From an uncultured Eubacteriales bacterium (GTDB lineage: Bacteria > Bacillota > Clostridia > Oscillospirales > Acutalibacteraceae): DNA of 64,000 nt. Positions 1-50,326 of the stretch are shown one piece after another; position 1 is the stretch's first letter; each line of letters starts with the position of its first letter. The notes under the pieces were generated by a model. It made no database searches. It had not been told where the DNA came from and saw only the letters and a list, made by a program, of their open reading frames with translations. The position numbers and the translations under genes are program-made. The stretch is taken from NCBI GenBank assembly GCA_964564305.1, contig CAZMAM010000003.1, positions 7,983 through 71,982 of the forward strand, given 5' to 3'.

Positions 1-1
1 G

Positions 2-472: not shown

Positions 473-505
473 ATGCAATCCGGAAGAAAAAAGGGGAGGA
501 TTCGG

Positions 506-1165
506 GTGAAGCGAATTGATGAACGCGGCGCCGGGGATGAGCGCGGCGAAATCATGCTGGAAGCGGTAATTATCATTGTTCCCGTGCTGATTTTGCTGTT
601 TGTTTTGCTTTCGCTCTCTTTTTTCTTTTATCAGGAAACGATGATTCATACCATGGCGACCGAAATTGCGGAAAATATCGCCAAAAATTATAAATTTACG
701 GATTTGCCCATGGAATCGCAGTCGCTTCGGCTGGATGATGTGAATAGTACCAAAATGTTTCGCATGACTTTCGGACAAAAGAACGTGAATGACGCGCACC
801 AAGGCCGTGCGAACGGTTATGTTCAGGATCGCGCCAGTTTTACCGGCATGGGGCTTCATCCGCAAAGCGCCAATGTGTCGTGTGAAATTCATTCCACCGG
901 AATCGGGCGCGCTTATGTGAAGGTTACCGTTTCGCAAAAAACCGATTTCTTTCTAAGCGGTATCTTGGAAATGACCGGGGTGGCGGATGAAGAAACGCTT
1001 TTTTCCTCCACGGTTTACGCGGAATGTACGGATTTTACCGCGTATACATCTTTGATGAATTTCGATGTCTATTGCAGCTCGCAGCTGAGTAATATGCAGC
1101 TGTTTGACAGCATCGGATCACTGTGGGCCAATGTTAAAAATTTTGCGCTCAAGCTGATCCATTAA
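506..1165 (+). CDS. TadE-like pseudopilin-type membrane protein
   Basis: GTG 506 sits 5 nt after GGGGAGGA (493-500); the ORF-track start at 473 is an alternative. The N-terminus ERGEIMLEAVIIIVPVLILLFVLL is the charged-Glu-hydrophobic helix pattern typical of TadE/TadF N-terminal domains. Confidence 0.55.
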   Translation: MKRIDERGAGDERGEIMLEAVIIIVPVLILLFVLLSLSFFFYQETMIHTMATEIAENIAKNYKFTDLPMESQSLRLDDVNSTKMFRMTFGQKNVNDAHQGRANGYVQDRASFTGMGLHPQSANVSCEIHSTGIGRAYVKVTVSQKTDFFLSGILEMTGVADEETLFSSTVYAECTDFTAYTSLMNFDVYCSSQLSNMQLFDSIGSLWANVKNFALKLIH

Positions 1166-1200
1166 TCGGAAAATAACGGGTGAAAAGAGGGAAAAATGGC

Positions 1201-3891
1201 ATGGATACACGCCGCCGAAAGAAAAAAGGCATTACCAAAGCAAAACTGCTTCGGGGCTTACGCGGATCAATTTCTATTTTGCTCTGTCTGATTTTGGCTC
1301 CGTTTCTTTCGGTTGCGCTGGGATTGGTGGAATATGCGCGTCTGCAGCAGGTGATTGAACTGACCGAGGAAATTTACGAACTCACGGGCATGTCCGTTCT
1401 GGCCGATTATGACCCCTACATTCATAACCGATTTGGATTGCTGTGTGTTTCTCAGGAAGATTCGTTCGGCACCGGATTTTCTGCGCAGCTTACCGAAAAC
1501 GCAAAAATGATGGGCAATCAGATTTCCCTGAACAATATTTCCCTCACCGGAAAGATGTCGCTTCAAGATGCCGATACGCTGAAGAAGCAATTGATGGATG
1601 TCAGCGAACTGACCGTCACTTCGGCGGTGCTCGGAAAGGATTTTCATTTAGAAGAACTGCTGGAAAAATTAAACGAATTTTCCGGATTCCAGAATTTTAC
1701 GAATGTTATCGACGGTTTGTCCACGGTGGCGGAAAAATTAAGTGATGTAGTGGACAAGCTGAATAAGTTAAAGGATATGTTCGGAGATTTAAGGATTGCT
1801 ATATACGATGCAACAAATTCCGCTAATAAACTGGTGGAGAAAACGGCCGATTTTTATAAGCGGCTTGGGGATAACGGCGTAATGCTGAACGGCTCCGGGG
1901 AAACGGAGGAAACGGAAAACAGAGTATTGCAAGCTTTTGTGGGAAATTATTCGTTGGATTTACAATCTCTCTCTTCCGCCGGGAAAAGCTTGGTGGATGA
2001 CTTTGGCAATGTCAAGGCAAATCTGGACGAGGTAAAATTGGCTATAGACGGATTAAAATCAGCGCTGCAAGCGGCGAAGGATGCTTTGGCGTCGATTAAT
2101 TCCTCTTCCGCCGATAATACAGTCGATCCGAACGGAAAAATTACCCAAAGTGCGGTAGAACCAATGAATGCTGTTATCACTCAAATTGACACACTTGTGA
2201 CCGATACGCTGAATTCGTTTAAAGAGGAAACGGTATCCGCACTGAAAGAAGTGATGCGCAAAATTGTAGAGGAAGCTTTTCAGCAATGCGGTCTTTCCCA
2301 AATGGTCCGGTACAGCGATATTATTGCCGGACGGTATTTTACGTTTCCGCTCAGCAGTCAGGCAAAAACGGATCTTCTGGATTTGCTGGAGACGGTAAAA
2401 GAAATTTATGACAGCCAAGGAAGCGGGGATTTCACTTTGCTGCAATCATTTTTTAAGGAAAAGTTTATTCCGGATTTGCATAATATTGATATTGGTAATT
2501 TTATTGGTAATTTATTGGACAAGATTGAACAAGCTTTGCAGGAGGCGGGAGAGAACATTGTCCAAAATGGAGAAGAAAAAGTCCAAAATATTCTGACGAA
2601 ACTGGTCGAGATTGTCCGCTCCCTGTTCGATCTGGATATCTGTTATGAACCGGATTTTAACGCGCAGGTACAGACCATCAGCGCATCCACCAGTTCTTAT
2701 CAGGATTTTATCAATAATGTCAACAACTTAAATACAGCGGCGAGCGAATTTGGGGAATCATTAGTTCCCCTAAATGTGGTGCAAATGTTTAAGTCCCTCG
2801 CAGGAATTTTTAAAAACATCTATAAAGTGATTCAATCCGTGTTTTCCATTATCGGGAATATTCTGAGTAACATCGGATCGCTGGCGGGCGATATGTTCAC
2901 CGGAAATTGGAAACAGCTTTACGAAAGGCTGCTGATCAGCGGATATATGCGGCATAATCTTCCCTGCCGAATTGACGACGCCGCCTTGGCTGCCGTGCCG
3001 GGCGGAGTGAGGGCACAACTGGCAGGGGAGGGACTGACCGGATTTCCATATGACGACATTGCGCGGCCGCCGGCTTATCCTTCCGCGCAAAGTACCGCAG
3101 AATCCTCGCTCTCGAGTATGAGCGGTCAGCTCTCGAATCTGCAAAACGGCAGGGGTGCAGACCGAGCATTTAAGGGCGCGGAAATGGAATTTATTTTGGC
3201 GGGGACCAATTCCGAGATCGCCAATCAGACCGTGGCGTTTCTCAACATTTATTTTCTGCGGCTGCTGCTGGATATTCCCTCTGTTTTTCAGGACGGGGCA
3301 GTGGCGGCAACCGCGGCAGCGGCCAGTGTGGCCTCTTGGCTTATCTATATTCTCTATATTCTGATAGAACCATTTTGCGACACGATTCTCTTGGTCAACG
3401 GAGGAACCGTCGATTTGATTCGCAGCCAGTGTTATCTGACCCCGGTTAAAATACCAGACTTTCTTGAAACACTGACCGATGTCATCGTCTCCAATGCACA
3501 GTTAAGTGCGGCCGTGAAAAACGAAATCGACGGGAACCTGAAGGTAAAGATGAAGGAATATATCGACGAAAATAATTACGAACCATCATCGGATGTAGAC
3601 TCGTTGATGGACGGCGACGGGACACAAATCGATTACCGCACCACCATGCTGTTGCTGCTGTTTTTAGCCGTTGATCCGGCAGATCAAATCAGACGTCTTC
3701 AGGATATCATTCGTATGGAGACCGAGCAGTATTATATCGATCAGGGAAAGACTTTTCGTTTCGGCGCAACATATACGGCTTTGGAAATCGCGGCGAATGT
3801 GACATTTTACCCGTTTTTCGATCTCGGCGTCGCGTCGGGAGGGTCGCCTACGCTACCCGCCGGGCGAATCAGCCAATTTGTGGGGTATTGA
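1201..3891 (+). CDS. Large TadG-like membrane protein with a long helical/coiled-coil middle and a hydrophobic C-terminal region
   Basis: ATG 1201 lies 8 nt after AAAAGAGGGA; GTG 1180 is an alternative start. A basic tail is followed by LRGSISILLCLILAPFLSVALGLVEYARL (TadE/G-like helix). A stretch of about 450 aa is rich in heptad-like L/E/K. The C-terminus has hydrophobic segments (FLNIYFLRLLLDIP, WLIYILYILIEPF, TTMLLLLFLAV). Confidence 0.5.
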   Translation: MDTRRRKKKGITKAKLLRGLRGSISILLCLILAPFLSVALGLVEYARLQQVIELTEEIYELTGMSVLADYDPYIHNRFGLLCVSQEDSFGTGFSAQLTENAKMMGNQISLNNISLTGKMSLQDADTLKKQLMDVSELTVTSAVLGKDFHLEELLEKLNEFSGFQNFTNVIDGLSTVAEKLSDVVDKLNKLKDMFGDLRIAIYDATNSANKLVEKTADFYKRLGDNGVMLNGSGETEETENRVLQAFVGNYSLDLQSLSSAGKSLVDDFGNVKANLDEVKLAIDGLKSALQAAKDALASINSSSADNTVDPNGKITQSAVEPMNAVITQIDTLVTDTLNSFKEETVSALKEVMRKIVEEAFQQCGLSQMVRYSDIIAGRYFTFPLSSQAKTDLLDLLETVKEIYDSQGSGDFTLLQSFFKEKFIPDLHNIDIGNFIGNLLDKIEQALQEAGENIVQNGEEKVQNILTKLVEIVRSLFDLDICYEPDFNAQVQTISASTSSYQDFINNVNNLNTAASEFGESLVPLNVVQMFKSLAGIFKNIYKVIQSVFSIIGNILSNIGSLAGDMFTGNWKQLYERLLISGYMRHNLPCRIDDAALAAVPGGVRAQLAGEGLTGFPYDDIARPPAYPSAQSTAESSLSSMSGQLSNLQNGRGADRAFKGAEMEFILAGTNSEIANQTVAFLNIYFLRLLLDIPSVFQDGAVAATAAAASVASWLIYILYILIEPFCDTILLVNGGTVDLIRSQCYLTPVKIPDFLETLTDVIVSNAQLSAAVKNEIDGNLKVKMKEYIDENNYEPSSDVDSLMDGDGTQIDYRTTMLLLLFLAVDPADQIRRLQDIIRMETEQYYIDQGKTFRFGATYTALEIAANVTFYPFFDLGVASGGSPTLPAGRISQFVGY

Positions 3892-3901
3892 GGAAGCGCA
3901 C

Positions 3902-4459
3902 ATGATGAAAGAAAACCGTACACAGGGCTCTTTGACTTTGGAAGCCTGTATTGTGGTGCCGATTTTTGTTGCGGTGATGCTGGTGGCCAACGGATTATTT
4001 ATTCTTTTTATGGGCCAGCAGGTGATGTCGCATACGTTGCTGACGGCCGCGAAAAGTTTGGCGTTGGATCCGTATTCTTCCGAAAGGGTGACGCAGAGCG
4101 GTGCGAGCGATTTGGCCGGGATGATCTTGGATATTACCGATGTGGTTCATGGAAATTATACATCCGCAGACAAATGGTACGAAACGCATCCCGACGATTT
4201 ACAGTTTCTCGCCAAAGAGCGGTTTTCCGCTTATCTGCGTTCTTCCCATAGCGATGCCGATGAATTACTTCAAATGGTGGGGATCGAAAACGGCGTAGAC
4301 GGGCTGGATTTTTCTCAAAGCCGCTATGCCGACGGTGTTTTGACCCTTACGTTGACGTACACGCAAAATTACCCCTTTAATGCGGCCGGGCTCGCTTCTT
4401 TTTCCCGCACCATGAGCGTACAGGTGAAAACCTTTGAATATAAAGCGTTAGGAGAATGA
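3902..4459 (+). CDS. TadE-like pseudopilin-type protein
   Basis: ATG 3902 lies 5 nt after GAGGAAG (3890-3896). The N-terminus is MMKENRTQGSLTLEACIVVPIFVAVMLVANGLFILF (G-x-x-x-x-E plus hydrophobic helix). It overlaps the end of the preceding gene. Confidence 0.55.
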   Translation: MMKENRTQGSLTLEACIVVPIFVAVMLVANGLFILFMGQQVMSHTLLTAAKSLALDPYSSERVTQSGASDLAGMILDITDVVHGNYTSADKWYETHPDDLQFLAKERFSAYLRSSHSDADELLQMVGIENGVDGLDFSQSRYADGVLTLTLTYTQNYPFNAAGLASFSRTMSVQVKTFEYKALGE

Positions 4460-4465
4460 GCGGAG

Positions 4466-6133
4466 ATGGATTTTACCTTTGAAAATCAAGGAACCACCAC
4501 ATATCTTGTGTATACCGTTAAAGATGGCGATGAAGTGGATTCCATGAGTCTGGGAATGATTATCAACAACAAAATTCCCGGTGTGGCGCCGGCGGTGGTT
4601 ACTCAGATGAATACGCGCCAATATATTAAATTTAACGTATCCGCCAGAGCATCCGTTAAGCAGTTTTTTTCCGGACCCGTCAACAAAAAGCGATTGCTGG
4701 GCATTTTTGCCGGGATTGCCGATGCAATGCTTTCCGCCGAAGATTACATGATCGATCCCGCCATGTTTATTCTCGATTTGGAACATATTTTCGCCGATGT
4801 TTCCACTTGCGACACCGTGCTCATCTGCCTGCCGATTGTCTCGAAAGAAAAGAAAACCGGCGATTCTCTGGAAATGTTTTTCAAGAAAATTCTGTTTACC
4901 ACACAGTTTGATCAAACCGAAAACTGCGATCATGTGGCGCGGATAATGAATTATCTCAACAGCGCTCCCGCGTTTTCGCTGGTGGAATTTCGCAAGCTGA
5001 TAACCGCACTTTCGCAGGAGAGGGCGCCCGCCGCAGGCGCCGTGGAACAGACAAGACGGCCGGCTGCTCCTGCCGGCGCGTGGGAACGTCTGCCTCAAGC
5101 GGTTAATCCCGTTGTTCCGCAGCAGCAACCGGTGGCTGCGCAGCAGCCGCCTGTGCCGCAAAATTTTCGGCAACCGGATGGGCATATTCCTTCGGCGACG
5201 CCGCCCGTGCCAAAACCTAAAAAGACCGCCAAACACGAAAAGAGCATGCCGGTGCCGCCGGGTCCCGGTATTCCAGCTGTTTCTCAAGGCCTCGGGAATT
5301 CCGCATCATCGCACAGTACTTCCGGGAGTGAAAAACCAATCAGTTGGTTTTATTTGATGCAGCATTACAACAAAGAAAATGCCGCCGCCTATAAAGCGCA
5401 AAAAGAAAAAAAGAAAGCGCAAAAAGCAGCAGCTGCTCCCGCTACTTCCGGGTATTCGGTTCCCGGCGCGCCACAGAACGGTACGCCTGGTGCCCCCGGG
5501 TTTCCCGGAGCGGCGCCGAACGCGGCGCCCGTTACTCCCGTTTCCACCGGTGCGGCATCCAATGCGGGGGCTTTTCCCCCCGCGCCCACCGGTGTGGCGT
5601 ACAATCGAATACCGTATGCTCCGCCTCCCAATCGACCGGTTGCACCGGCTGCCGTTTCTTCCCCTGCTATGCGCCCCGCTTCGCCCTCGGAAATCTCCGC
5701 GGCGCCGTTTGGCACTTCTGCGGGGAATCCCGTTCCGGGAAATATGGCCAATTTTGGGGACACCACCGTGCTGAATCCCGGCCGGGGCGGTGATACCACC
5801 GATCTGGCTACTTTGAATATGACGTCGTTTTCGGTGGCTTCTCCGTTTTTGATTCGCCGAAAAAACAATGAACGCATTCGCATTGACAGGGCGGTTTTCC
5901 GTATCGGAAAAGAAAAAAGCAATGTCGATTATTTCGTCAGCGATAACGCTGCGGTCAGCCGAAGCCACGCGAATATTCTTACCCGGGAGGGCAAATATTT
6001 TATTGTGGATACCGATTCCACCAATCATACCTTTGTCAATGGCGTGATGATACAAAGCCGGTCGGAAGTGCCGCTGAACAGCGGAGATACCGTGCGTTTT
6101 GCCAATGAAGAATTTGAATTTAAGGTGATGTGA
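4466..6133 (+). CDS. FHA domain protein: N-terminal globular domain, long Pro/Ala-rich linker, C-terminal FHA
   Basis: The C-terminus FRIGKEKSNVDYFVSDNAAVSRSHANILTREGKYFIVDTDSTNHTFVNG...LNSGDTVRF carries the FHA signature (G-R...S-x-x-H...N-G). An RBS AGGAGA lies upstream of ATG 4466. Confidence 0.85.
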   Translation: MDFTFENQGTTTYLVYTVKDGDEVDSMSLGMIINNKIPGVAPAVVTQMNTRQYIKFNVSARASVKQFFSGPVNKKRLLGIFAGIADAMLSAEDYMIDPAMFILDLEHIFADVSTCDTVLICLPIVSKEKKTGDSLEMFFKKILFTTQFDQTENCDHVARIMNYLNSAPAFSLVEFRKLITALSQERAPAAGAVEQTRRPAAPAGAWERLPQAVNPVVPQQQPVAAQQPPVPQNFRQPDGHIPSATPPVPKPKKTAKHEKSMPVPPGPGIPAVSQGLGNSASSHSTSGSEKPISWFYLMQHYNKENAAAYKAQKEKKKAQKAAAAPATSGYSVPGAPQNGTPGAPGFPGAAPNAAPVTPVSTGAASNAGAFPPAPTGVAYNRIPYAPPPNRPVAPAAVSSPAMRPASPSEISAAPFGTSAGNPVPGNMANFGDTTVLNPGRGGDTTDLATLNMTSFSVASPFLIRRKNNERIRIDRAVFRIGKEKSNVDYFVSDNAAVSRSHANILTREGKYFIVDTDSTNHTFVNGVMIQSRSEVPLNSGDTVRFANEEFEFKVM

Positions 6134-6155
6134 ACGGGACGGAGGCGAATATTCC

Positions 6156-6923
6156 GTGAATTTTTTGGCCGCGGCGGATACGGATATCGGCCTTACCAAA
6201 GCCACTAATCAGGACAGTCTGCTGGTAAAAGGGCTGAGCACGCGTTTGGGGCACATGGCTTTCGCCGTTTTGTGCGACGGCATGGGTGGATTGGAAAAAG
6301 GAGAATTGGCCAGCGCCGGCGTGGTGCGTGCGTTTGACCGATGGACAAATACCGCGCTGCCCGAACTTTGCCGCTCTTCTATGGACGATTCCGTTATGCG
6401 CGAACAGTGGACGGCGTTGATTGCCGAACAGAATCGAATTATCAAAGCATATGCGGCCGCGCGGGGAATTCGGATGGGTACCACGGTAGTGGCGATGCTG
6501 CTGACCGAAACCCGGTATGTTATTTTGAATGTCGGTGATTCCCGCGCGTACGAACTGGGTGCAAATATCCGGCAAATCACCGAAGATCACAGTTTTGTGG
6601 CACGTGAAGTGGCCTTGGGCAATATGACGGAAATGCAAGCCAACCGGGACGAGCGCCGGAATGTTTTGCTGCAATGTGTGGGTGCGTCCGACGAGGTGTA
6701 CCCGGATATGTTTTTTGGAGATACCCGGCCCAATACGTCGTATTTGCTTTGTTCCGACGGCTTTCGGCACGAAATTACTTCCGGGGAAATCTATGAGCAT
6801 CTCAGCCCGAAAGCGGCGCCCAATCAGGACGCCATGAGTCGCGCGCTACGTCTTTTAATCGATTGGAATAAGCAGCGCAGGGAACCGGACAACATTTCTG
6901 CCGCATTGATTCGAACCTGTTGA
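6156..6923 (+). CDS. PP2C-family Ser/Thr protein phosphatase
   Basis: Motifs TDIGLTKATNQDS, LCDGMGG, NVGDSRAY and LCSDG are present. GTG start follows GGAGG. Confidence 0.9.
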   Translation: MNFLAAADTDIGLTKATNQDSLLVKGLSTRLGHMAFAVLCDGMGGLEKGELASAGVVRAFDRWTNTALPELCRSSMDDSVMREQWTALIAEQNRIIKAYAAARGIRMGTTVVAMLLTETRYVILNVGDSRAYELGANIRQITEDHSFVAREVALGNMTEMQANRDERRNVLLQCVGASDEVYPDMFFGDTRPNTSYLLCSDGFRHEITSGEIYEHLSPKAAPNQDAMSRALRLLIDWNKQRREPDNISAALIRTC

Positions 6924-6935
6924 GGAGGTGCGCAC

Positions 6936-8621: not shown

Positions 8622-8637
8622 TAAAGGAGAACATCGC

Positions 8638-9126
8638 GTGACTTACGAAACGTATCGATATATTTTTATCGTCGGCGCCATTTTGTCCGGAATAATGCTG
8701 GCGGTGGCCGTGCTCCTGTTCTTTCTGCTGCACATTCCCACCGTTATCGGGGATATCACCGGGCGTAATGCGCGCAGAGGAATCGAGGAGATTCGCGGCC
8801 GAAATTTCGGAGCCGGGAACAAATCCGCAAAACTTTCATCATCGGCGGGAACCGGTGCGAAGCAGGCGGGCAAAAGTTCCGCCGTCGTGCGCCCGGTTGC
8901 CCGGTCCTTTACCGCAACGGGCAGGATGGGAACCGCCAAGCTGAGTACCGTTGAATTGCTCCACAGCGCACAGGAAACCACTTTGCTGAAAAACGCTGAA
9001 CATGACGACAAGGGGCCGGCAGCGCCCGTTTACGCAGAAACAGCTTTGTTGGCCGCATCCGATGCATCCGCTTTTTTTGTGGAATACGAAATATGTTTTA
9101 TTCACACCGAAGAAATCATTGCGTGA
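8638..9126 (+). CDS. Hypothetical single-pass membrane protein
   Basis: GTG follows AAAGGAGA. It has an N-terminal TM helix (YIFIVGAILSGIMLAVAVLLFFLL). No motif was recognised. The coding call rests on operon packing. Confidence 0.45.
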   Translation: MTYETYRYIFIVGAILSGIMLAVAVLLFFLLHIPTVIGDITGRNARRGIEEIRGRNFGAGNKSAKLSSSAGTGAKQAGKSSAVVRPVARSFTATGRMGTAKLSTVELLHSAQETTLLKNAEHDDKGPAAPVYAETALLAASDASAFFVEYEICFIHTEEIIA

Positions 9127-9160
9127 AGATTTTAAGATTGCTTAAAGAAGGTGCATAACC

Positions 9161-9643
9161 GTGCGCAAAAACCCCATTTATCCGATGAGGGCGTCCGTTT
9201 TGTGTTTTGCCGTTTCCTTTTTTTCGCTCAGTGCGATACCTCTGGCACAGCTTTGCCCGGAAACTGTGAACAAAATTTTGGGATATGTGATTGCGGCGGT
9301 GTTTTGGCTGTTTTTATTTTCCGGGACGGTCTTGTTTTGGTTGGCGAAAAAACGGATCAGGCCGTACCGGCGAAAATTGAAATCCGTGGGTGAACTTTCC
9401 GCTTCCCGTCTCCCGGGCGTTTTTCGTTTTTCCCGTCGGCCGCTTTCTCTGATTATGTATGGGATTATTTTGGTGGGAGCGGTGTTGATTATTACCGACA
9501 TCATTTTTTCTTATGTGCCTTCGGCGGTGATGTTTCCGATTCTTTCGGTTACTTTGTTTGCGTTTGCGCTCCACTGTATTGTGGACAGCGAAACATATCA
9601 GGTCTTTCTGAAATACAGGAAAGGGATGGGTGCAGAGTTATGA
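9161..9643 (+). CDS. Hypothetical polytopic (about 4 TM) membrane protein
   Basis: Four hydrophobic helices. Its stop overlaps the start of the giant gene (ATGA at 9640-9643). Confidence 0.45.
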   Translation: MRKNPIYPMRASVLCFAVSFFSLSAIPLAQLCPETVNKILGYVIAAVFWLFLFSGTVLFWLAKKRIRPYRRKLKSVGELSASRLPGVFRFSRRPLSLIMYGIILVGAVLIITDIIFSYVPSAVMFPILSVTLFAFALHCIVDSETYQVFLKYRKGMGAEL

Positions 9644-12600
9644 ATAAGGCGGCAAACGGGTTTTTCCGTGTAGCGGCGGTAATGCTGGCATTGGCGGTGA
9701 TGCTCTCCGCTTTCCCGTTCAGCGTGATTGGAGCGGCGGCGGCGCAAAAGGTCTTTACGTTTACCGTCACCGATATCGCGCAATCTCCCCTTAAGGGCGC
9801 ACAAGTGTCGGTTTTTCCTCCGCAGGAGGGCGAACCTATCGTGATGACAACCGGCGCACAAGGTACCGCATCCTTTGATTTGGATGAGGGAACGGCGTAC
9901 CGGTACGAGGTGTCTCTGTATGGATATCAAACGGTCGCGGGTGAAGTCGATTGGGAGGCCGGAAAAGCGGACGTCACATTAATGCCGGCGAGTAAAGCCG
10001 AGTTAAAGGGCAAAGTGACCGATTCCGAAGACACGCCGCTGCCAAATGTCGCAGTGCGTCTGGAATGCCAAGAGGATAAACGCGATACGCAAACGGGCCC
10101 CGACGGATCGTTTACTTTTGCGGATGTATACGAAGGAGAAACCTATACGCTTACCGCTACTCTGGCCGAATATAAAACACATACGGTTACGGTAAGCGAT
10201 TTTTCTCGGGAAACTGCCGTAAAACTGACGCGGAAAGAATCTGATCCGCTGAAGTTTTCTCAATCGTCCGTTGAGATAACATACGGAGAAACGGTTCCGC
10301 AAAATATCGCCACAGGTGAAAAAAGCCAAGAAAATGCGGATAAGTACGAGTCGTCCGTTATATCGGTGGCTACGGTGGACAATTCCGGAAAGGTAACGGT
10401 TATCGGCGTAGGAACCACAAAGATTACCGCGACCAAATCAGAAAATGAGGACTACCTTAATTCTTCGGCGTCATATATCCTTACCGTAAATGCGGGGAAA
10501 CAGTCTGCGCTTAAATGGAAAAACCCTGTTCCTCAATCCCTCAGTTGGAAAGAGACCTTTACGTTTTCCGTGAGCGGCGGTAGCGGAAACGGGGCTGTCA
10601 CCTACAGCGTAGATAAAGCGGAAGTGGCCGAGATTGATCCTTCTTCGGGAGTACTCACGCCGAAAAAGCCGGGGCAGATTACGGTTACCGCGACAAAAGC
10701 GGGAGAAGTCAAAGACGGGCAGCAACTGTATGAAGATGCATCCATTACTGCTTCTCTTACTCTGACAAAAGCGAAACAGGCGACTTTGACATTTACACAA
10801 CCGGATGAGGAATATTCCGTTGTCTTTGGAGAAACTTTTGCCAATCCCGCGACCGGCGGATCGGTTTCGGGCAAGATTACCTATGCGGTGGAAGATTCCG
10901 ACATAGCGAGTGTAGACGAGAACGGAACCGTCACTCCTCTTCAATCCGGGAGAGTGAAAGTAACCGCCACCTTGAAGGGTGACGAGTTTTATGATGATGT
11001 TTCCGCTTCTTATATCTTGAATATTCAAGCGGCGGAGCAAAAGAATTTTCACTTTTTGATTCTCGGAGAATCGTTTACCGTTACATTTGGGGATAAATTT
11101 TTTAATCCCGCTCTCTTCGGGGAAAATAAGCCGATTAAATACGATTCTTCCGATCAAACGGTCGCTACTGTAGATGAACACGGCAATGTCACCACACTGA
11201 AGCAGGGAAAAACGGTCATTACCGCAACCAGCCCGCAGGACGGCCGCTTTGATTCGAAGACCATCCAATACACATTAATTGTTCAACGGGCAGAGCAGAC
11301 GGTTGTATTTGAAACGGAAAATATTCCTCAGGTCACTTACGGGGACGACGGCTTTCAAAATACAGCGAGTGCCAAAACAACCATCACTTATACTTCATCG
11401 AAGCCGGAAACGGTTGCCGTAGATGAAGCAACGGGAAAACTGACCTACCTCCAGTCGGGTATCGCCATCATCAAGGCTACCGCCGCGGAAACGGATCAAT
11501 ATAAATCCGCTTATGCGGAATATACCATTTCCGTTGGTCTTGCAGAACAGACCGTTACGTTTCAAAAAGGATCCGAAGTTACCGTCACTTTCAACGACAA
11601 CGAAAACTTGTTTGTCAATCCAGCGATCAGCGACAAACAGGGCGCAGTGAACAATGTTACATACAGCACTGATAGCAATCTTGTGGAACATTTGGACGTC
11701 AAATCGGGCCAATTTACGATTAAAGGCGCCGGTACAATCATCGTTCGGGCAACAATTGACGAAGATAAGTGCTACCAAGGAGCTTCGGGGACATACATTT
11801 TAACCGTAGAAAAAGACGATCAAACAATTGCGTTTGATCGGGAAAACTATACCCTGACTTCCGGTCATGATTTTCCGGAAGGAGAAAGCCCAAAAGCTAC
11901 CGAGCAGGGAAAGTTTTACGGAACCGGTGCGATTACTTATGCCTATCAGGACGACAGCAACGGAATTGTCAAAACCTTTTCACCGACAGACGGTGCGCTA
12001 GATTTGACTTACCGACTTGGAACGGTTACGGTGACCGCCACTAAAAAGGGAGATATCAATTATAAAGATGCGAGCGCATCTTATCAGCTCACTGTTTCCC
12101 CTTGGGTTCCGGAAAAAGAGGAAAATTATTATCATCTGGATGGCAATGCGCTTCCCGGCAACGAATGGTTCCGATCGGCTGTTTCCCTGTTTGCCGACAA
12201 CGGATGTCAGGTTGGAATAACAAACGAAAAGGGTACCGAATGGTTTAACAGCATCCCGGATATGGTGACGGAGGACGGAGAAAATCATTCCATTACCTTT
12301 TATTTGAAAAACGCTCAAGGAGATATTTCCGATAAAATTACGCTGTCCGTCAAAAAGGACGGCACTCCGCCATCGGTGTCTTTGAGCAAAGAGGCGCCGT
12401 CGTTTGCCTTTCGGTTCTTGGAAATTATATTATTCGGAACATGGCATAAGGATACGGTTGAATACACGGCTGAGGCAAGCGATGAACTTTCGGGTAATAC
12501 CAAAATCGAGTATTATCTTGATACAACCGGGATCGATGTGAAAGATCGCGAGGCATTGGACAAAATATCTGATTGGCAGCCCTATGATCAATCGATTTCG

Positions 12601-15600
12601 GTTTCGAAGGATCAGGCGTTTGTGGTTTACGTCAAAGCTACGGATGCGGCGGGCAACGTGGAATATACCGATTCCCACGGTGTTATCTTTGACGCTACAC
12701 CGCCGAGTATTTCATTGACACCTTCGGACACCGGAAACGATTATGAAAACGGATTTTATACCGGGGATGCGCTGTTTGATCTTGCGGTTACCGATAAACA
12801 GCCGTCCAGCGGTATCCAATCGGTGGATTATACCGTTACCGTTAACGGAAGTGAGAAAATTTCCCAAAATCTGTTTACCTGTGATCCGTCTGCGGAGGAG
12901 GAACAACAAAGGGTGTTCCGTTTTCCGGAGAGCGGTAATTTTCTCATTACGGTTCCGAGCACGGGATTGTCGGAAACGGATCGGGTAACTCTTACCGTCA
13001 CCGTAAAGGACCTTGCGGGTAATCTGCAAACGGAAACGTTGGAGAATTTGCGCATCATTTCTTCACCCGCCGTTGTTCTCCTTTCTCCCATAGCAGAGGG
13101 TTATTACCGCAATCCGCAAACGGTCACCGTTACGGTGTGCGGCAAACCGGATTCGTTCGACGAAAATAAGGTTCATCTCACGGTTACCGCCACCGATGCC
13201 GCCGGAAAACCGGTCGCAGACGATCTTTCTCCGTATTATACGCTCGGCGCGTGGAGCCGGACTCAGAGCGGGGATCATGTTGCCGAATGTACTTTTCGCG
13301 GCAATGCCAACTATCGTGTCGGTGTGACATACGAAGAGCCGAAGGGCATGATCGGAGAAGCCGAAAAAGAGCTCAGTTTCACGGTAGATGCCGAAAAACC
13401 CACAGGCAAAGTGAGCATCGGGAGTCTGGGCGCATGGGAGACATTGCTGGAGAAACTGACCTTCGGGTTGTGGAGCCGGGATATTCTTCATGTTACCGCA
13501 ATTGCAGAGGATGCGATCAGCGCTCCGGATGTTCGGATAGATATGATTCGTTTGCCCGACAAAACCGCGAAGACGCAGGCCGAACTGGAAGCACTTGCCC
13601 CGGAGACATGGAAGACATATGAGCCGTTTGATGTCAAAACAGATGAAGTCTTCACCGTATACCTGAAATTGACGGACGCGGCGGGGAATGTGGCGTATAT
13701 TTCGTCTGACGGAATTATTTTGGATACCGAGAAATCCCGTATTACCATACGGCCCAAAGAAGCGGCGAACGAAAACGGATACTATAATCGGGATGTGCCT
13801 ATTGTCATAGAAGTTACGGAAGAAAACAAGGATGTGCATTCCGGCTTAAAGAGCATAATCTATCGGGTAGAGAATAACGGGGAGAAGACTCAGGAAGGGA
13901 CGCTGTTTACCTTTGAACGGGCGAATCCCGCGTATGAAGAATTGGTGGACACATGGAACAGCGATGAAGCCGGAAAAGAAGTGGTGGTAGACGCTCAGAA
14001 GAACAATTCGGATGCGGTCAGCGTCGTTGTCACGGTAACGGATAATGCGGGTAACGTACAGGAAGACGAAATAGCGCTGAAAATTGATGTGACCAAACCG
14101 AAGATACGGCTGACGTATGACCGGCAAACGGAGCGCGTGTATTCCGGACGGGGATATTTTATGACGGAGCGCACCGCGACGGTGGTAATCACCGAGAGGA
14201 CGTCCACATTTGACCCGGAGCAGGCAACGGCGGGATTGGTATTTTCGGGAACAGACGCGAGCGGGGCAGCGGTGGAACTCAATCGCGAGGCGATGATTGT
14301 CGATTGGGAAGAGCCGCACGAAGGAGCAACGCCGGACGAAGCCACACATACGGCGCACATTCATTTTACGGAAGACGCCAATTACACCTTCAGCGTGAGT
14401 TATACCGATAAGGCCGGGAACGCCAACGAGCCGGTCGATACCGGAGATTCGGTGACACCGTATACCTTCACGGTGGATAAAGAGGCACCAAGCGGCGTGA
14501 TTACGGCGGGAAACAATAGTTGGGATGTTTTGCTGTATACCTTAACCTTCGGGCTTTGGAGCAGAGAATCCGTAACCGTGAGTGCTTCGGTACAGGATGC
14601 CACCAGCCCGGTGACGGTAGAATATTTCAAAACCGATGCAACCGATTTGCTGAGCTTTGGAGATTTGGAAAAAATAGACGGCTGGGCGCTGTTTTCCGGC
14701 TTGACGGTATCTGCTGCTGAGCGGGACGAACGGTTTACGGTATATCTGCGTATTACGGATTATGCGGGGAATAGGATATATCTGCAAACAGACGGTCATG
14801 TAGTAGAGAAAACCGCGCCGAAATTAACGCTTACACCGCAGGAGACTTCAATTGAGCACAACGGTATCGGTGTATACAACGGCGATGTTACCGTATTGAT
14901 TCGGGCACAGGAGTCGGATCCGTATTCCGGTATTCAAAAAGTGGAATACTGGGTAGAATGCGCCGGCAGAGAGACCCAGCGGGAAACCCTTTTCACGTAC
15001 GAATATATCCGCGATACCGGCATCGGTAACAACGGCGGCGATCTGACCATTACGGAGGGCGGACAGGAAACCTCTCAGTACGGATTTGTTCCCACCTTTG
15101 AAGATTTGCAATCTTCGTTTGAACAGGTTATTACGGTGGATGCGGAAAAAAACAACAGCTGTGATGTTTCCGTTACCGTTGGCGTAACCGATAATGCGGG
15201 CAATTACGCACAGGAAAGCGTTTCGCTGGATATTGATATTACGGCGCCGGTCATCTCCGTTTCCTTCAACAATAACGCGGTGCATAAGACAGTTGGTGAG
15301 CGCGGATATTATCCTTCCGCACGAACGGCAACCGTAACCGTAACCGAGAGAACCGGGCACTTCAACGCGCAGCAAGCCACAGACAGCTTGAAGATTCAGG
15401 CGGTGAATGCCAAGGGAGAACCTGTGCGCAGCGAAGCGGCAGGACGGATTAGCGGCTGGACAACAACGGAACATTCGAATGAAAACACGGCAACTCATAC
15501 CGCTACCGTCGAATTTTCCGCCGATGCTAATTATGATTTTTCCCTGAGTTATACTGATTTGGACGGTTGGGAGAACGGGGAGATTGATACCGAGGGGTGC

Positions 15601-18276
15601 ATAACGCCTTATCATTTTACCGTAGACAAAACGGCGCCGACCGGTACCGTGACTGTCGAGAGCTTGGGTACGTGGGACAAGCTAATTGAGGTGCTGACAT
15701 TCGGATTATGGAGCAAAGACACGGTCTCGGTTACGGGAACCAGCGATGATTTGACCAGTCCGATTGATTCGGTAGATTATTACAAAACGCCGGATATTGT
15801 GGCCAAAACCGTTGAGGAATTGGAAAATATTTTCGAATGGGCTCCTTTCACCTCGTTGTCCGTTTCTCCGAACGAGCGGTTCGCCATTTACTTGCGAATT
15901 ACCGATAATGCGGGCAATGTCACCTATATCAGCACGGACGGCATTATCGTGGATGATCGCATTCCGGTATTTGAACAGGTACAGCCGGAAATCACATTGA
16001 CTCCGCTTTATCCGGAAGACGGGGTATTTTATCCGGAAGACGGGGTATATCAGTCAAACGTCACGGTGTCGGTCAGGGTGATTGATCCGAATGTGGGCGC
16101 GCAGGCTGTTTATTCCGGATTAAGAGAAATTCGATATGAGGTTACCAATTTGGGTAATATTACCCAAAGCGGAGTTCTGTTTAATTTCGTGTTGCAGAAT
16201 CCCACACAGCCGCAGCTGCTGCAGCTGTGGAAAAAACAGGACGCCATTGTGGTAGACAGCGCGCTGAATAACAGCAATCAGGTTTTGGTTCGGGTATTTG
16301 CCACAGATAACGCTGGAAACGAAAATGAGGAAGAAATCAGTCTGCAGATAGACGTCACACCTCCGGAAATTTCGGTTCGGTACGATAATAACGACGGAGA
16401 TACCTCTTTTGCGGAGGGCACCTATTTCAATGCGGATCGTCGTGCCACGATTACGGTGACGGAGCGCAATTTTGATCCGCAGAATGTAACGCTCAGCGTT
16501 ACCAATACCGATGGCCCCGTTCCGGTACTTTCGGAATGGTCAACGGCGTTGGGATCTTCGGAAAACGGAGATGATATTCGCCATATTGCGACATTGCTGT
16601 ACCATGCCGATGGAGATTACCGCTTCGATATTTCGCTCACCGACAGGGCGGGAAACGCCAATACGCCTGTGGATTACGGAACATCGCTTGCGCCCGTATC
16701 TTTTACCGTGGATCAAACATTACCGGTAATACAGGTGACATACGACAATAATGCTGCGGCAAATGGAAATTACTACAATGCTCCGAGAATCGGAACCGTT
16801 ACCGTGACGGAACACAATTTTGAAACGTCCCGTGCGTTGTTTACTTTAAATGCTACCGATAACGGCGTACAGGCTTCGCTTCCCACAGTCAGCGGATGGT
16901 CCTCAAGCGGTGATGTGCATACCGCAACGGTGCGTTATGCTCAAGATTCGCTGTATTCCTTTGATTTTGCGTATACCGATATGGCGGGCAATGCCGCCCC
17001 AGATATACCCGAACAGCAATTTTATGTCGATCAGACACAGCCGGAAGTGACCATTCAAAAAGTATCTGCGAATGGGGTCAACCGGAAATTAGATGAGTCC
17101 GCAAACACCGGAGAAGGAAATATCGGTTTTGTCATCACGGCAACCGATACCAACTTTGATATTTTTACGCCGGAACTGACGGCTGTGGTTCGTTCTTCTG
17201 ACACCTTTGAAGTCAGACAACTGGAAGTCGGATCATTCTCAGAAACGGCAAACGGCAGAAGGTATACTGTCTCCAATCTGGATACGGACGGAATTTATAC
17301 CGTTCGGTGTACGGTAATCGATAAAGCGGGCAATGCGTTTACACAAATTCATTTGGAAGACAGTCAGGGAAATGATTATGTCGAGAACCGTTCGGGAGAG
17401 GATGATTTGGTGACCTTTTCCGTGAACCGCTTCGGTTCCACATTTATGCTCGGTCAATCCACGGCAGATATGGTTGACCAATATTATGTGCAGCGCGTGA
17501 CGGAAGATTTGACTGTCATTGAAATCAACGCAGACCCGATTCAAGAACGTTATATTACTTCGGGCGGTGAGGACATTCACGAGAATGAGGGATATACTGT
17601 CACAGAAGAAGGCGGAAACGGCGATTGGTTTCGGTACACTTACCGCGTGAGCCGTTCACTGTTTGATGAAGAGGGCGAGTATCGCGTGGTGGTATCCTCC
17701 AAGGATAAGGCTGAGAACGATGCCTTCAGCGATGTCAAGGACGCTGCCATTGAATTTGTGGTTGACCGCACGGCGCCGGTGGTGACGGTAACCGGCTTGG
17801 CTCAGGGCGGAAGGTACCAAACGGAAAGACAAACGGTAACCGTTACTCCCATCGATGACGGAGGAGCGCTGCGTTCACTGACCGTTCGTATGGTGGAAGC
17901 AGACAGAGACGGCAACGTTACCGAAATATTATCGGAGCCGATCCGTCTTTCGGGAGAAGAACTGGCGACGGTTCTTGAGGAAAATGACGGTCATATCACC
18001 TTTGAAGTGGCGGAGGGGCTGTACCAAAATGTGCAAATCCTTTGCGACGATCAGGCGGTGGACGAAAACGGCGATTTTAATACTTTTGATACCGTTATCA
18101 CCAATGTTTCCGTATCGTCCAATGCTTTTATGATTTTCTGGGCAAACCGTCCGCTCCGTTACGGTATTATCGGTGGTGTGGCTTTGGTCGCGCTTGCGGT
18201 GTTTCTCCTGATTATCTTATTAAAGCGCAAAAAAGAAAAGGAGCAGGAAGAAGAGGTTTCTTCGGCGCAATCCTAA
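9640..18276 (+). CDS. Giant (2878 aa) cell-surface Ig-like repeat protein with a signal peptide and a C-terminal TM anchor
   Basis: The N-terminal signal-like helix is AAVMLALAVMLSAFPFSVIGAAAAQ. It has 2 carboxypeptidase-regulatory-like beta-sandwich units and about 7 Big_2-like units (e.g. GTTKITATK, GQITVTATKAG, GRVKVTATLKG). Four modules of roughly 350-385 aa are marked by TFGLWS(R/K) and TD(N/A)AGN motifs. The C-terminal TM GIIGGVALVALAVFLLIILL is followed by KRKKEKE. No LPXTG motif is present. Confidence 0.85.
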   Translation: MNKAANGFFRVAAVMLALAVMLSAFPFSVIGAAAAQKVFTFTVTDIAQSPLKGAQVSVFPPQEGEPIVMTTGAQGTASFDLDEGTAYRYEVSLYGYQTVAGEVDWEAGKADVTLMPASKAELKGKVTDSEDTPLPNVAVRLECQEDKRDTQTGPDGSFTFADVYEGETYTLTATLAEYKTHTVTVSDFSRETAVKLTRKESDPLKFSQSSVEITYGETVPQNIATGEKSQENADKYESSVISVATVDNSGKVTVIGVGTTKITATKSENEDYLNSSASYILTVNAGKQSALKWKNPVPQSLSWKETFTFSVSGGSGNGAVTYSVDKAEVAEIDPSSGVLTPKKPGQITVTATKAGEVKDGQQLYEDASITASLTLTKAKQATLTFTQPDEEYSVVFGETFANPATGGSVSGKITYAVEDSDIASVDENGTVTPLQSGRVKVTATLKGDEFYDDVSASYILNIQAAEQKNFHFLILGESFTVTFGDKFFNPALFGENKPIKYDSSDQTVATVDEHGNVTTLKQGKTVITATSPQDGRFDSKTIQYTLIVQRAEQTVVFETENIPQVTYGDDGFQNTASAKTTITYTSSKPETVAVDEATGKLTYLQSGIAIIKATAAETDQYKSAYAEYTISVGLAEQTVTFQKGSEVTVTFNDNENLFVNPAISDKQGAVNNVTYSTDSNLVEHLDVKSGQFTIKGAGTIIVRATIDEDKCYQGASGTYILTVEKDDQTIAFDRENYTLTSGHDFPEGESPKATEQGKFYGTGAITYAYQDDSNGIVKTFSPTDGALDLTYRLGTVTVTATKKGDINYKDASASYQLTVSPWVPEKEENYYHLDGNALPGNEWFRSAVSLFADNGCQVGITNEKGTEWFNSIPDMVTEDGENHSITFYLKNAQGDISDKITLSVKKDGTPPSVSLSKEAPSFAFRFLEIILFGTWHKDTVEYTAEASDELSGNTKIEYYLDTTGIDVKDREALDKISDWQPYDQSISVSKDQAFVVYVKATDAAGNVEYTDSHGVIFDATPPSISLTPSDTGNDYENGFYTGDALFDLAVTDKQPSSGIQSVDYTVTVNGSEKISQNLFTCDPSAEEEQQRVFRFPESGNFLITVPSTGLSETDRVTLTVTVKDLAGNLQTETLENLRIISSPAVVLLSPIAEGYYRNPQTVTVTVCGKPDSFDENKVHLTVTATDAAGKPVADDLSPYYTLGAWSRTQSGDHVAECTFRGNANYRVGVTYEEPKGMIGEAEKELSFTVDAEKPTGKVSIGSLGAWETLLEKLTFGLWSRDILHVTAIAEDAISAPDVRIDMIRLPDKTAKTQAELEALAPETWKTYEPFDVKTDEVFTVYLKLTDAAGNVAYISSDGIILDTEKSRITIRPKEAANENGYYNRDVPIVIEVTEENKDVHSGLKSIIYRVENNGEKTQEGTLFTFERANPAYEELVDTWNSDEAGKEVVVDAQKNNSDAVSVVVTVTDNAGNVQEDEIALKIDVTKPKIRLTYDRQTERVYSGRGYFMTERTATVVITERTSTFDPEQATAGLVFSGTDASGAAVELNREAMIVDWEEPHEGATPDEATHTAHIHFTEDANYTFSVSYTDKAGNANEPVDTGDSVTPYTFTVDKEAPSGVITAGNNSWDVLLYTLTFGLWSRESVTVSASVQDATSPVTVEYFKTDATDLLSFGDLEKIDGWALFSGLTVSAAERDERFTVYLRITDYAGNRIYLQTDGHVVEKTAPKLTLTPQETSIEHNGIGVYNGDVTVLIRAQESDPYSGIQKVEYWVECAGRETQRETLFTYEYIRDTGIGNNGGDLTITEGGQETSQYGFVPTFEDLQSSFEQVITVDAEKNNSCDVSVTVGVTDNAGNYAQESVSLDIDITAPVISVSFNNNAVHKTVGERGYYPSARTATVTVTERTGHFNAQQATDSLKIQAVNAKGEPVRSEAAGRISGWTTTEHSNENTATHTATVEFSADANYDFSLSYTDLDGWENGEIDTEGCITPYHFTVDKTAPTGTVTVESLGTWDKLIEVLTFGLWSKDTVSVTGTSDDLTSPIDSVDYYKTPDIVAKTVEELENIFEWAPFTSLSVSPNERFAIYLRITDNAGNVTYISTDGIIVDDRIPVFEQVQPEITLTPLYPEDGVFYPEDGVYQSNVTVSVRVIDPNVGAQAVYSGLREIRYEVTNLGNITQSGVLFNFVLQNPTQPQLLQLWKKQDAIVVDSALNNSNQVLVRVFATDNAGNENEEEISLQIDVTPPEISVRYDNNDGDTSFAEGTYFNADRRATITVTERNFDPQNVTLSVTNTDGPVPVLSEWSTALGSSENGDDIRHIATLLYHADGDYRFDISLTDRAGNANTPVDYGTSLAPVSFTVDQTLPVIQVTYDNNAAANGNYYNAPRIGTVTVTEHNFETSRALFTLNATDNGVQASLPTVSGWSSSGDVHTATVRYAQDSLYSFDFAYTDMAGNAAPDIPEQQFYVDQTQPEVTIQKVSANGVNRKLDESANTGEGNIGFVITATDTNFDIFTPELTAVVRSSDTFEVRQLEVGSFSETANGRRYTVSNLDTDGIYTVRCTVIDKAGNAFTQIHLEDSQGNDYVENRSGEDDLVTFSVNRFGSTFMLGQSTADMVDQYYVQRVTEDLTVIEINADPIQERYITSGGEDIHENEGYTVTEEGGNGDWFRYTYRVSRSLFDEEGEYRVVVSSKDKAENDAFSDVKDAAIEFVVDRTAPVVTVTGLAQGGRYQTERQTVTVTPIDDGGALRSLTVRMVEADRDGNVTEILSEPIRLSGEELATVLEENDGHITFEVAEGLYQNVQILCDDQAVDENGDFNTFDTVITNVSVSSNAFMIFWANRPLRYGIIGGVALVALAVFLLIILLKRKKEKEQEEEVSSAQS

Positions 18277-50004: not shown

Positions 50005-50039
50005 ATTCCCGTAAAAACCGCATAGAAAAAGCCGTCGGT

Positions 50040-50245: not shown

Positions 50246-50326
50246 GGCCGTTACGAACGGGCGAGGAACGTACAGCCGGGTGAAAACATCGGCATCGGGT
50301 TGACCTTATGCCCTTTTTCTCCGACT

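Follow-up and report, generated by a model that had tools for sequence, protein, structure and literature searches.

Which envelope machine is served by a Ser/Thr kinase, a phosphatase and an FHA protein whose genes lie between pilin-like genes and the gene for a giant surface protein, and by what means might they act upon it? The question is raised by a window of 64,000 nucleotides of DNA from an uncultured Eubacteriales bacterium of the Acutalibacteraceae. An earlier note on this DNA had described nine consecutive + strand open reading frames (ORFs) at 473-18276, and the ORF list and translations bear this out, the 3' end of a tenth (2-472) preceding them. Judged by gene content, window 1-18276 is very probably the distal two-thirds of a single ~24-kb Tad (type IVc) pilus operon from an uncultured member of the Clostridia. 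This identity, taken together with a phospho-threonine switch acting through a short repeated motif, is in our estimate the best explanation of the locus as a whole, with a probability of roughly 0.6. The earlier note had proposed a switch gating the fibre, the adhesin or both, and the motif evidence given below makes such a switch more specific and more plausible, from which we infer phosphorylation-dependent control of pilus assembly.

Tad pilus genes upstream of and within the window

The genes upstream of the window were read from a 26-kb public contig, L001, that was found by the exact sequence of the FHA protein. L001 shares 16,133 nt with the window at 100% identity and reaches 5.5 kb further upstream, where Tad genes on the same strand lie tightly packed directly before window position 1. 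It had been predicted in the earlier note that Tad motor, pilin and prepilin peptidase genes would be found upstream of this position. This central prediction was correct, since L001 carries the motor, platform, pilin and peptidase genes there (TadZ, CpaF/TadA, TadB, TadC, an Flp-like pilin and a prepilin peptidase). Domain calls were made with Pfam hidden Markov models (HMMs) on the window proteins, and orthologues from relatives were scanned too. The upstream features are as follows.

Start of L001, + strand: TadZ-like ARD protein, 356 aa (precomputed PF21194 TadZ-like_ARD)
L001 619-1857, + strand: CpaF/TadA ATPase (T2SSE, 4.8e-61)
L001 1897-2739 and 2736-3599, + strand: TadB and TadC platform proteins (T2SSF, 1.7e-11 and 6.4e-7)
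L001 3662-3883, + strand: Flp-type pilin, 73 aa (Flp1_like, 17.8 bits, under the cut-off of 33.5)
L001 3893-4612, + strand: A24 prepilin peptidase (Peptidase_A24, 3.8e-13)
L001 4637-6007, + strand, with its 3' end at window 2..472: membrane-anchored TPR and WG-repeat protein, 456 aa in full (WG_beta_rep, 1.4e-18)

The C-terminal 203 aa of the TadZ-like protein were scanned against Pfam and gave no match, and the Pfam scan found no FHA domain in the CpaF of L001. Flp1_like was matched by 11 of 19 orthologues of the pilin (best 6.1e-15), in which the motif ExG↓DTNFISI followed by a hydrophobic helix is conserved. The WG-repeat gene adjoins the prepilin peptidase gene on its 3' side, and the ORF that precedes position 473 is its 3' end, as had been noted from the window (E 1.4e-18); we know of no role for a membrane-anchored TPR and WG-repeat protein in any Tad system. 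No secretin (RcpA/CpaC) was present among the annotated genes of L001 or of the window, where no dedicated search for one was made, and none is expected in a monoderm.

Within the window the WG-repeat gene is followed by three genes for pseudopilin-like proteins.

473..1165, + strand (public start 506): TadE-like minor pilin 1, 230 aa (TadE PF07811, 17.5 bits, under the cut-off of 22.9)
1180..3891, + strand (public start 1201): DUF5702 protein, 903 aa (DUF5702, 25.3 bits against a cut-off of 26)
3878..4459, + strand (public start 3905): TadE-like minor pilin 2, 193 aa (TadE, 14.5 bits, under the cut-off of 22.9)

All three had been described as carrying a TadE/TadG-type N-terminus with a Glu. 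At family level two of them are of the TadE type with Gly and Glu at +5, namely minor pilin 1 (...ERG↓EIMLEAVIII; conserved motif G↓E(V/I)MLE) and minor pilin 2 (...TQG↓SLTLEACIVV; conserved motif G↓S(I/V)(T/S)LE). The description does not hold in this respect for the 903-aa protein, whose hydrophobic N-terminus, RG↓SISILLCLILAPF, is TadG-like and lacks Glu+5; its family motif, KG↓AISLFL, is likewise without Glu+5, as in TadG, and a long helical region occupies the middle of the protein. With regard to HMM scores, the window copies fall just under the Pfam cut-offs, whereas orthologues do score: TadE was matched by 8 of 24 orthologues of minor pilin 1 (best 2.3e-7) and 10 of 26 of minor pilin 2 (best 1.9e-5), and DUF5702 by 23 of 27 orthologues of the 903-aa protein (best 2.3e-25), PF13400 Tad being matched by two of the 27. 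NCBIfam gave no family-level name for the pseudopilins or for the small proteins described below. The helical middle of a few DUF5702 orthologues weakly matches WXG100 (2 members, 1.4e-3) and YwqH-like (2 members, 2.1e-5), which are helical-hairpin families typical of substrates of type VII secretion systems (T7SS).

The order of genes is tadZ, cpaF, tadB, tadC, flp-like pilin, prepilin peptidase, WG-repeat protein, TadE-like 1, DUF5702/TadG-like and TadE-like 2, followed by the DUF6382-FHA adaptor, PP2C, membrane Ser/Thr kinase, ETTVL-repeat single-pass protein, small polytopic membrane protein and giant Ig-repeat protein. With the first possible start codons the spacings in the window are 0, 14, -14, 6, 22, 12, 16, 34 and -4 nt. 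The tight packing claimed earlier stands, as gaps do not exceed 35 nt with either choice of start. The abutment at 472/473 and the overlap at 3878-3891 are start-dependent and vanish with the public gene calls for the same DNA, in which ORF1 begins at GTG 506 (not ATG 473), ORF2 at ATG 1201 and ORF3 at ATG 3905. The ATGA stop/start overlap at 9640-9643 is real and runs from the polytopic protein gene into the giant gene, in keeping with the translational coupling of the giant protein to its preceding ORF that had been pointed out. The array stops at 18276 because the next gene, encoding a CNNM/CBS/CorC transporter (18724-19980), is convergent and housekeeping genes lie beyond it. Scans for promoters and terminators were uninformative on operon structure, with consensus counts near or modestly above shuffled expectation and no clear internal terminator.

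The proposed phospho-threonine cassette and its ETTVL motif

Pfam confirmed that the pseudopilin genes are followed by genes for an FHA protein, a PP2C phosphatase and a transmembrane (TM) Ser/Thr kinase, and two small membrane proteins (162 and 160 aa) lie between the kinase and the giant protein, all in agreement with the earlier note.

4466..6133, + strand: DUF6382-FHA adaptor, 555 aa (DUF6382, 64 bits, 1.4e-17; FHA, 55 bits, 8.7e-15)
5753..5806, + strand: twin motif of the adaptor, FGDTTVL ... GGDTTDL, residues 430-436 and 441-447 (predicted phospho-acceptor/self-binding site)
6156..6923, + strand: PP2C/PPM Ser/Thr phosphatase, 255 aa (PP2C_2, 36 bits, 8.1e-9)
6936..8621, + strand: single-pass membrane Hanks-type Ser/Thr kinase, 561 aa (Pkinase, 164 bits, 6e-48)
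8638..9126, + strand: small single-pass membrane protein, 162 aa (N-terminal TM helix; no Pfam family)
9161..9643, + strand: small polytopic membrane protein, 160 aa (no Pfam match; stop overlaps the giant start, ATGA)
9640..18276, + strand: giant surface protein, 2878 aa (CarboxypepD_reg and Big_2, Big_3 and Big_13 Ig-like repeats)

These proteins were compared over 80 loci from species-representative genomes, fetched via an alignment of 22 homologues of the FHA protein, which is 34-49% identical to the query at these loci. Locus counts here and below were obtained with tblastn, using the proteins of the window and L001, and by HMM iteration on locus ORFs. All six-frame ORFs of 60 aa or longer in the 80 loci, 1.1 million residues altogether, were searched for the motif ETT[VIL]L. 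It occurred 228 times, 115 of these in the FHA protein and 110 in the small single-pass TM protein, leaving 3 elsewhere. One of the three outlying motifs is carried by a 245-aa reading frame at ~12166 of locus L005, in a gap of 500-1000 nt between the FHA and PP2C genes; a gap of that size was also observed in L003, L007, L009, L012 and L015.

In the adaptor, for which more than 1540 homologues were found, the twin motif reads FG(E/D)TTVL...G(E/D)TTVL. It precedes the FHA domain by 20-35 residues and shows no or almost no variation among the 22 aligned homologues. The FHA domain keeps the phosphothreonine (pThr)-binding Ser498 (SRSH) and Asn520, while the canonical Arg is replaced by an invariant Lys482 (EmbR alignment). 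It aligns with OdhI and GarA (E 1.5e-4 to 7e-4; NCBIfam OdhI, 3.6e-7), and among its PDB matches are DgcB (6hc1) and GarA pThr22 (2kfu), whose structures show the FHA domain together with the phosphorylated tail of the same protein. FHA domains read pThr with selectivity at the +3 position, and in the GarA/OdhI switch an ETTS motif becomes phosphorylated and binds the FHA domain of the same protein. The likeness to GarA/OdhI lies in a Glu-preceded Thr-Thr motif (ETTS in GarA, (E/D)TTVL here) that precedes the FHA domain by a few tens of residues. GarA, however, is a small soluble regulator of tricarboxylic acid cycle enzymes, whereas here the motif is doubled, is repeated on a separate membrane protein and accompanies an FHA domain fused to a domain that is predicted to be kinase-like.

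This prediction comes from an AlphaFold2 model of the adaptor based on the 22-sequence alignment. DUF6382 takes up residues 1-185 of the model (predicted local distance difference test, pLDDT, of ~85); the other parts are a conserved helix (294-322), a long linker that is disordered and rich in Pro and Ala, and the FHA domain. It has no TM helix and thus depicts a soluble protein with a disordered linker, unlike EssB/YukC, which is membrane-anchored and has an extracellular domain. Foldseek comparison of the C-terminal part with the PDB returned FHA domains. For DUF6382 it returned protein-kinase catalytic domains (BTK, E 2e-5; TM-score 0.3-0.5 normalised to target length). Also among the matches were a T7SS pseudokinase, YukC/EssB of B. 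subtilis (6z0f, E 3.5e-4), and the N-terminal domain of pIP501 TraF. DUF6382 had no Pkinase HMM match and its sequence profile found nothing in the PDB even at an E of 10, so that the kinase-like assignment comes from the fold only. DUF6382 is therefore best described as a probable pseudokinase with a kinase-like fold, an assignment with moderate support.

Catalytic motifs are intact in both the PP2C and the kinase, which in the latter read GQGGMS, AVK, YRDMKPAN and DFG. Against the Stp1/IreP model the PP2C scored 163 bits (7e-48), under the equivalog cut-off of 230. The activation loop of the kinase, LADTTCLGT, holds a DTTCL segment that resembles (E/D)TTVL and would hence fit a kinase that writes this motif. 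Its outer domain (nt 7836-8618) was modelled as a helical repeat with a small hairpin at a pLDDT of 91, and the kinase lacks PASTA domains. A Foldseek search with the outer domain gave no match at E ≤0.001 and only weak TPR/helical-repeat matches with TM-scores of at most 0.42 among the 50 listed. The kinase at one locus, L061, is 991 aa long.

Orthologues of the 162-aa protein were detected at 61 of the related loci by tblastn and at 62 by HMM iteration. A profile search gathered 2911 representative clusters at E ≤1e-3 and 1548 at ≤1e-10, most of them with several motifs, and neither a Pfam family nor a source name is attached to the family. Its members share a TM helix, a juxtamembrane segment IGDLTGxxARKAIExIRxQNE...RGKxTDKI, 1-9 tandem (N/G/D)ETTVL repeats and the ending F.(V/I)EYEITFIHTxE(I/V)I. 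The window copy has degenerate motifs, TVELL at 8947-8961, ETTLL at 8974-8988 and ETALL at 9037-9051, and ends in the conserved FFVEYEICFIHTEEII tail. On the layout of its family the 162-aa protein is a predicted multivalent phospho-docking scaffold. The polytopic 160-aa protein was found with an orthologue HMM in 42 loci including L001, its gene always between those for the small TM protein and the giant protein.

A signal peptide opens the giant protein, whose C-terminus is composed of FWANRPLRYG, a TM helix and a Lys-rich tail (KRKKEKEQ...). Anchoring by sortase was ruled out: the sequence contains no LPXTG (LP.TG) motif and has a C-terminal TM anchor instead. The same kind of C-terminus, FY(A/T)NKPLFYG with a TM helix and a Lys-rich tail, recurs in homologues that are 1800-2900 aa long. 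At other loci the position of the giant is taken by He_PIG proteins with choline-binding or LysM domains, or by DUF285/LRR proteins with LysM; the types found downstream of the kinase in L051, L058, L039 and L077 include He_PIG Ig with choline-binding repeats, He_PIG with CarboxypepD_reg, He_PIG with LysM and DUF285/LRR with LysM. As the type of surface protein varies, its link to the switch looks looser, and the big adhesin is, on gene content, a regular but exchangeable passenger of the operon. The cytoplasmic tail of the giant counts 17 residues and is without an ETTVL motif; it is for this reason regarded as co-expressed cargo and not as a target of the switch.

By analogy with known FHA switches, a mechanism can be proposed to which we give about an even chance taken by itself. 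The kinase would sense an extracellular or envelope cue via its helical-repeat outer domain and autophosphorylate on the DTTCL activation loop. It would also act on the small membrane protein and on the adaptor linker, where phosphorylation at the first Thr of (E/D)TTVL would give pT-x-x-L. Binding of pT-x-x-L by the FHA domain of the adaptor would allow the phosphorylated repeats of the membrane protein to recruit the adaptor and concentrate it at the membrane beside the Tad platform, whereupon its kinase-like DUF6382 may engage the platform and license pilus assembly. The twin motif of the adaptor could serve as a competing self-interaction in the manner of GarA/OdhI, resulting in self-inhibition or head-to-tail oligomerisation. 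The PP2C phosphatase would reset the switch, and the giant adhesin would be co-expressed as part of the same adhesion programme.

Conservation at related loci and likeness to known systems

It had been left to relatives to show whether the cassette of FHA, PP2C and kinase and the giant gene stay in synteny with the Tad/pseudopilin genes. They do, the gene order recurring in dozens of species of Lachnospirales and Oscillospirales. Tad core genes lie upstream of the FHA gene in all 62 loci with at least 9 kb of upstream sequence, and the WG-repeat gene, in 61 of the same 62, is as conserved as the core. Downstream, PP2C and kinase genes follow in 62 of the 68 loci with at least 4.5 kb of sequence on that side; in the same set tblastn found the small TM protein in 54. 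A giant homologue with the same C-terminal anchor is present in 46 of the 62 loci that extend at least 9.5 kb downstream. All tblastn matches at the relatives' loci were on the same strand. HMM iteration recovered an Flp-like pilin in 59 loci and TadE-like proteins in 77-79. Two layouts were observed, with the pseudopilin genes either after the peptidase and WG genes, as in the window, or before them. The 80 loci derive from Lachnospiraceae (Roseburia, Agathobacter, Lachnospira, Acetatifactor, Tyzzerella and Mediterraneibacter), Oscillospiraceae, Acutalibacteraceae, Ruminococcus, Faecousia and others, and include the cultured isolates Ruminococcoides intestinale CLA-JM-H38, Ruminococcus sp. 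JE7B6 and Candidatus Soleaferrea massiliensis AP7.

At loci that lack the kinase the FHA gene is still found with the Tad genes. In L047 (8092-20182) the DUF6382-FHA gene lies between cpaF and tadB with a gene for a 1234-aa DUF5702 protein downstream, and no PP2C or kinase was found within 10 kb downstream. The pilus machine is accordingly taken as the probable target of the switch, because the FHA gene is the cassette member most faithfully linked to the Tad genes.

The locus resembles Tad/Flp (type IVc) systems, including those of Gram-positive Bifidobacterium and Bulleidia, in TadZ, CpaF/TadA, TadB, TadC, the A24 peptidase and an Flp-type pilin, and further in having, within the same operon, genes for a large TadG-like protein and for minor pilins of the TadE type (Gly, Glu+5). 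It differs from them in its conserved extras, which are the WG-repeat protein, the DUF6382-FHA protein, PP2C, the membrane kinase, the two small membrane proteins and the giant Ig protein, and in a pilin motif that reads ExG↓DTNFISI and not G↓xxxxEY. A description of the Bulleidia tad operon mentions none of these extra genes.

With respect to the cassette, the earlier note had invoked the threonine phosphorylation pathway of type VI secretion (T6SS), in which a membrane Hanks kinase, a PP2C and an FHA protein (PpkA/PppA/Fha1) are encoded within the gene cluster of an envelope machine. The analogy is a fair one. The triad is present here, but the machine is an unrelated one (Tad) and there are no T6SS genes, which makes the pathway a functional analogue only. 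The FHA protein also differs from Fha1 in its N-domain, which is probably kinase-like, and a dedicated repeat-bearing membrane docking protein is found here in addition.

The closer precedent appears to be the cassette of two T7SS classes, T7SSe and T7SSj (TseJ/TseF/TseD/TseK and TsjJ/F/D/K), as described in passages of Garrett and Palmer (2024, PMC11217815). Its members there are a cytoplasmic protein with DUF6382 and FHA, a phosphatase of the PPM type, a kinase that spans the membrane once and has a helical outer domain, and, as the fourth component, a small single-pass protein bearing an unstructured cytoplasmic stretch. The four-part cassette of the window appears to match this component set, its 162-aa protein resembling TseK in topology and position, as judged from the published descriptions. 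The same passages state that T7SSg and T7SSh always adjoin Tad genes. ETTVL repeats and a kinase-like fold of DUF6382 are absent from those passages of the paper that a term search returned. Unlike that of T7SSe/T7SSj, the cassette of the window and of 78 of the 80 relatives lies inside a Tad operon that has no EssC, YukD or WXG100. A T7SS encoded by the window was ruled out, with no EssC-sized ORF (none of more than 900 aa apart from the giant) and neither WXG100 nor FtsK_SpoIIIE among the 20 larger downstream ORFs (Pfam). By its gene content the window is the Tad-only form of the cassette, which is the dominant form among the sampled relatives.

The gene after FHA in the two most distant loci, L079 and L080, encodes an EssC-like ATPase of 1535 aa with FHA and FtsK_SpoIIIE domains. 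In L079 (1-21722) the upstream Tad genes (TadC, peptidase, WG protein and a TadE-like protein with InlB B-repeats) lead directly into the DUF6382-FHA gene, whose product retains the twin ETTVL motif. Behind the EssC-like gene lie those for YukD, two WXG100 proteins, an unknown protein of 773 aa and a second FHA protein, of the DUF6382-zinc-ribbon-FHA type; L080 is similar. This junction, together with the published descriptions of T7SSe/T7SSj, points to a cassette that is shared by two machines. FHA has also been linked to Tad in diderms, according to the published passages available, through the Myxococcus Kil system, class III CpaF with its N-terminal FHA domain, and genes near tad in Bdellovibrio. 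In those cases FHA is fused to the ATPase or occurs on unrelated proteins, and the passages report no DUF6382, ETTVL scaffold or dedicated kinase/PP2C pair. In the literature covered, which was incomplete and gives absence of evidence only, no description was found of the clostridial arrangement, the ETTVL repeats or the DUF6382 fold; nor was a paper found on DUF5702, DUF4320 or Flp1-like, and 'ETTVL' occurred only in unrelated text.

Competing explanations and biological meaning

Several other explanations were weighed against control of the pilus. The cassette might control the display, localisation or signalling of the giant surface protein, with the Tad genes as co-regulated neighbours in an adhesion island. 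This would suit its place between the pilus genes and the giant gene, the ATGA coupling of the giant gene to the preceding membrane protein, and the presence of some large surface protein after the cassette in most loci. We nevertheless find it unlikely, given that the type of surface protein varies (TM-anchored Ig giant, He_PIG or DUF285/LRR) whereas the Tad genes are invariably present, that the 17-residue tail offers no motif, and that the FHA gene stays with the Tad genes where kinase and giant are absent (L047, L069 and L079). Slightly less likely still is an apparatus for contact-dependent antagonism akin to the Tad-like Kil machine of Myxococcus, in which the cassette would couple contact to firing, joined by a T7SS in some relatives. 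FHA proteins are over-represented in the Kil system and proposed there as a contact-signalling cascade, as far as the passages on it go. The description of the same cassette as a component of T7SSe/T7SSj, the constant position of T7SSg/T7SSh beside Tad genes (in the passages of PMC11217815), and the L079 array uniting Tad genes, the FHA gene, EssC, YukD and two WXG100 genes also speak for it. The window, however, has no EssC (no ORF besides the giant exceeds 900 aa), no WXG100 or toxin domain was found by Pfam among the 20 larger downstream ORFs, and the T7SS junction is confined to the two most distant of the 80 loci.

The two remaining alternatives concern the enzymes. DUF6382 might be an active atypical kinase that phosphorylates Tad components or the ETTVL motifs; its fold is kinase-like by Foldseek, and an IDP..ILD..FAD segment after a long helix, with invariant D97, D104 and D111, may by eye correspond to the catalytic-loop/DFG region. 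We regard this as improbable, as there is no Pkinase HMM match, the profile matches no PDB sequence, no glycine-rich loop or beta3 lysine is recognisable in register, and the locus already encodes a canonical kinase. More improbable again is that kinase, phosphatase and FHA protein form a general cell-envelope module like PrkC/PrpC or PknB/PstP/FhaA that merely sits beside a pilus operon. While the kinase and phosphatase domains do align best with the Stk1/PknB and Stp1 models, they score far under the equivalog cut-offs (207 against 450 bits for the kinase, 163 against 230 for the phosphatase) and the PASTA domains are missing. The order Tad, FHA, PP2C, kinase is moreover kept in 62 of 68 loci over two orders of Clostridia, with gaps of 6-34 nt.

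Control of pilus assembly by a motif-based switch also faces points of its own. Being the nearest relatives of the query, the 80 loci over-represent the Tad-linked branch of the family. In the window itself the small TM protein bears only degenerate motifs of the ETTVL type (ETTLL and ETALL). The Foldseek matches behind the kinase-like fold of DUF6382 are of modest TM-score (0.3-0.5), with none at the sequence level. Lys in place of the canonical FHA Arg throughout the family could weaken pThr binding, and in the AlphaFold2 model the twin motif is not placed against the FHA domain, that region having a pLDDT of <50. Finally, the large downstream surface protein changes type in some loci.

A broader reading extends the pilus switch beyond Tad. 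According to this, the Clostridia possess a portable four-part phospho-threonine docking switch, plugged into both the Tad pilus and type VII secretion (T7SSe/T7SSj) and physically bridging the two in some species. Its parts would be a membrane kinase with a helical sensor, a PP2C, a single-pass scaffold with 1-9 tandem ETTVL phospho-acceptor repeats, and a pseudokinase-FHA adaptor with a twin ETTVL decoy. We put this forward tentatively, with the odds somewhat against it.

Outside the operon, a cobalamin riboswitch at 50019-50249 (+ strand, 78.8 bits) heads a + strand array that extends to 58357 and encodes a type I dockerin protein of 869 aa, a product of 191 aa, a DUF4430 protein, a CbiQ-like energy-coupling factor (ECF) T-component and an 874-aa double ABC ATPase. 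The gene content of window 50019-58357 suggests an uptake system under B12 control, one surface component of which carries a dockerin. A tmRNA gene (58469-58822, - strand; tag peptide DNNSVALAA) and a tRNA-Leu(taa) gene (33104-33190, - strand) were also identified. A 436-aa ORF at 22250-23563 (- strand), amid housekeeping genes, had no Pfam match at E ≤0.001, and a 660-aa protein at 31056-33038 (+ strand) with an NAGPA phosphodiester glycosidase domain (1.9e-32) is unrelated to the operon.

Tad pili are major colonisation factors. The proposed control combines two known kinds of system, the Tad pilus and the regulation of an envelope machine by Hanks kinase, PP2C and FHA protein, and adds a specific motif-based mechanism, a combination that is supported by the gene content and motifs of the locus. 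The mechanism on offer is a kinase-written, FHA-read motif on a dedicated scaffold. With it a likely role can be assigned to three families, namely DUF6382, DUF5702 and the unnamed family of small proteins (~2900 representative clusters). Regulation of Tad is at the same time tied to the accessory genes of T7SSe/T7SSj, which suggests a control module common to two nanomachines. If the switch is portable in the way set out above, adhesion would be coordinated with effector delivery, and the number of ETTVL repeats would act as a valency that sets the threshold for machine assembly. The locus is common to Lachnospiraceae, Oscillospiraceae, Ruminococcaceae and Acutalibacteraceae, its carriers including the abundant gut genera Roseburia, Agathobacter, Lachnospira, Ruminococcus and Faecousia, and the finding bears on when Gram-positive gut anaerobes build Tad pili.

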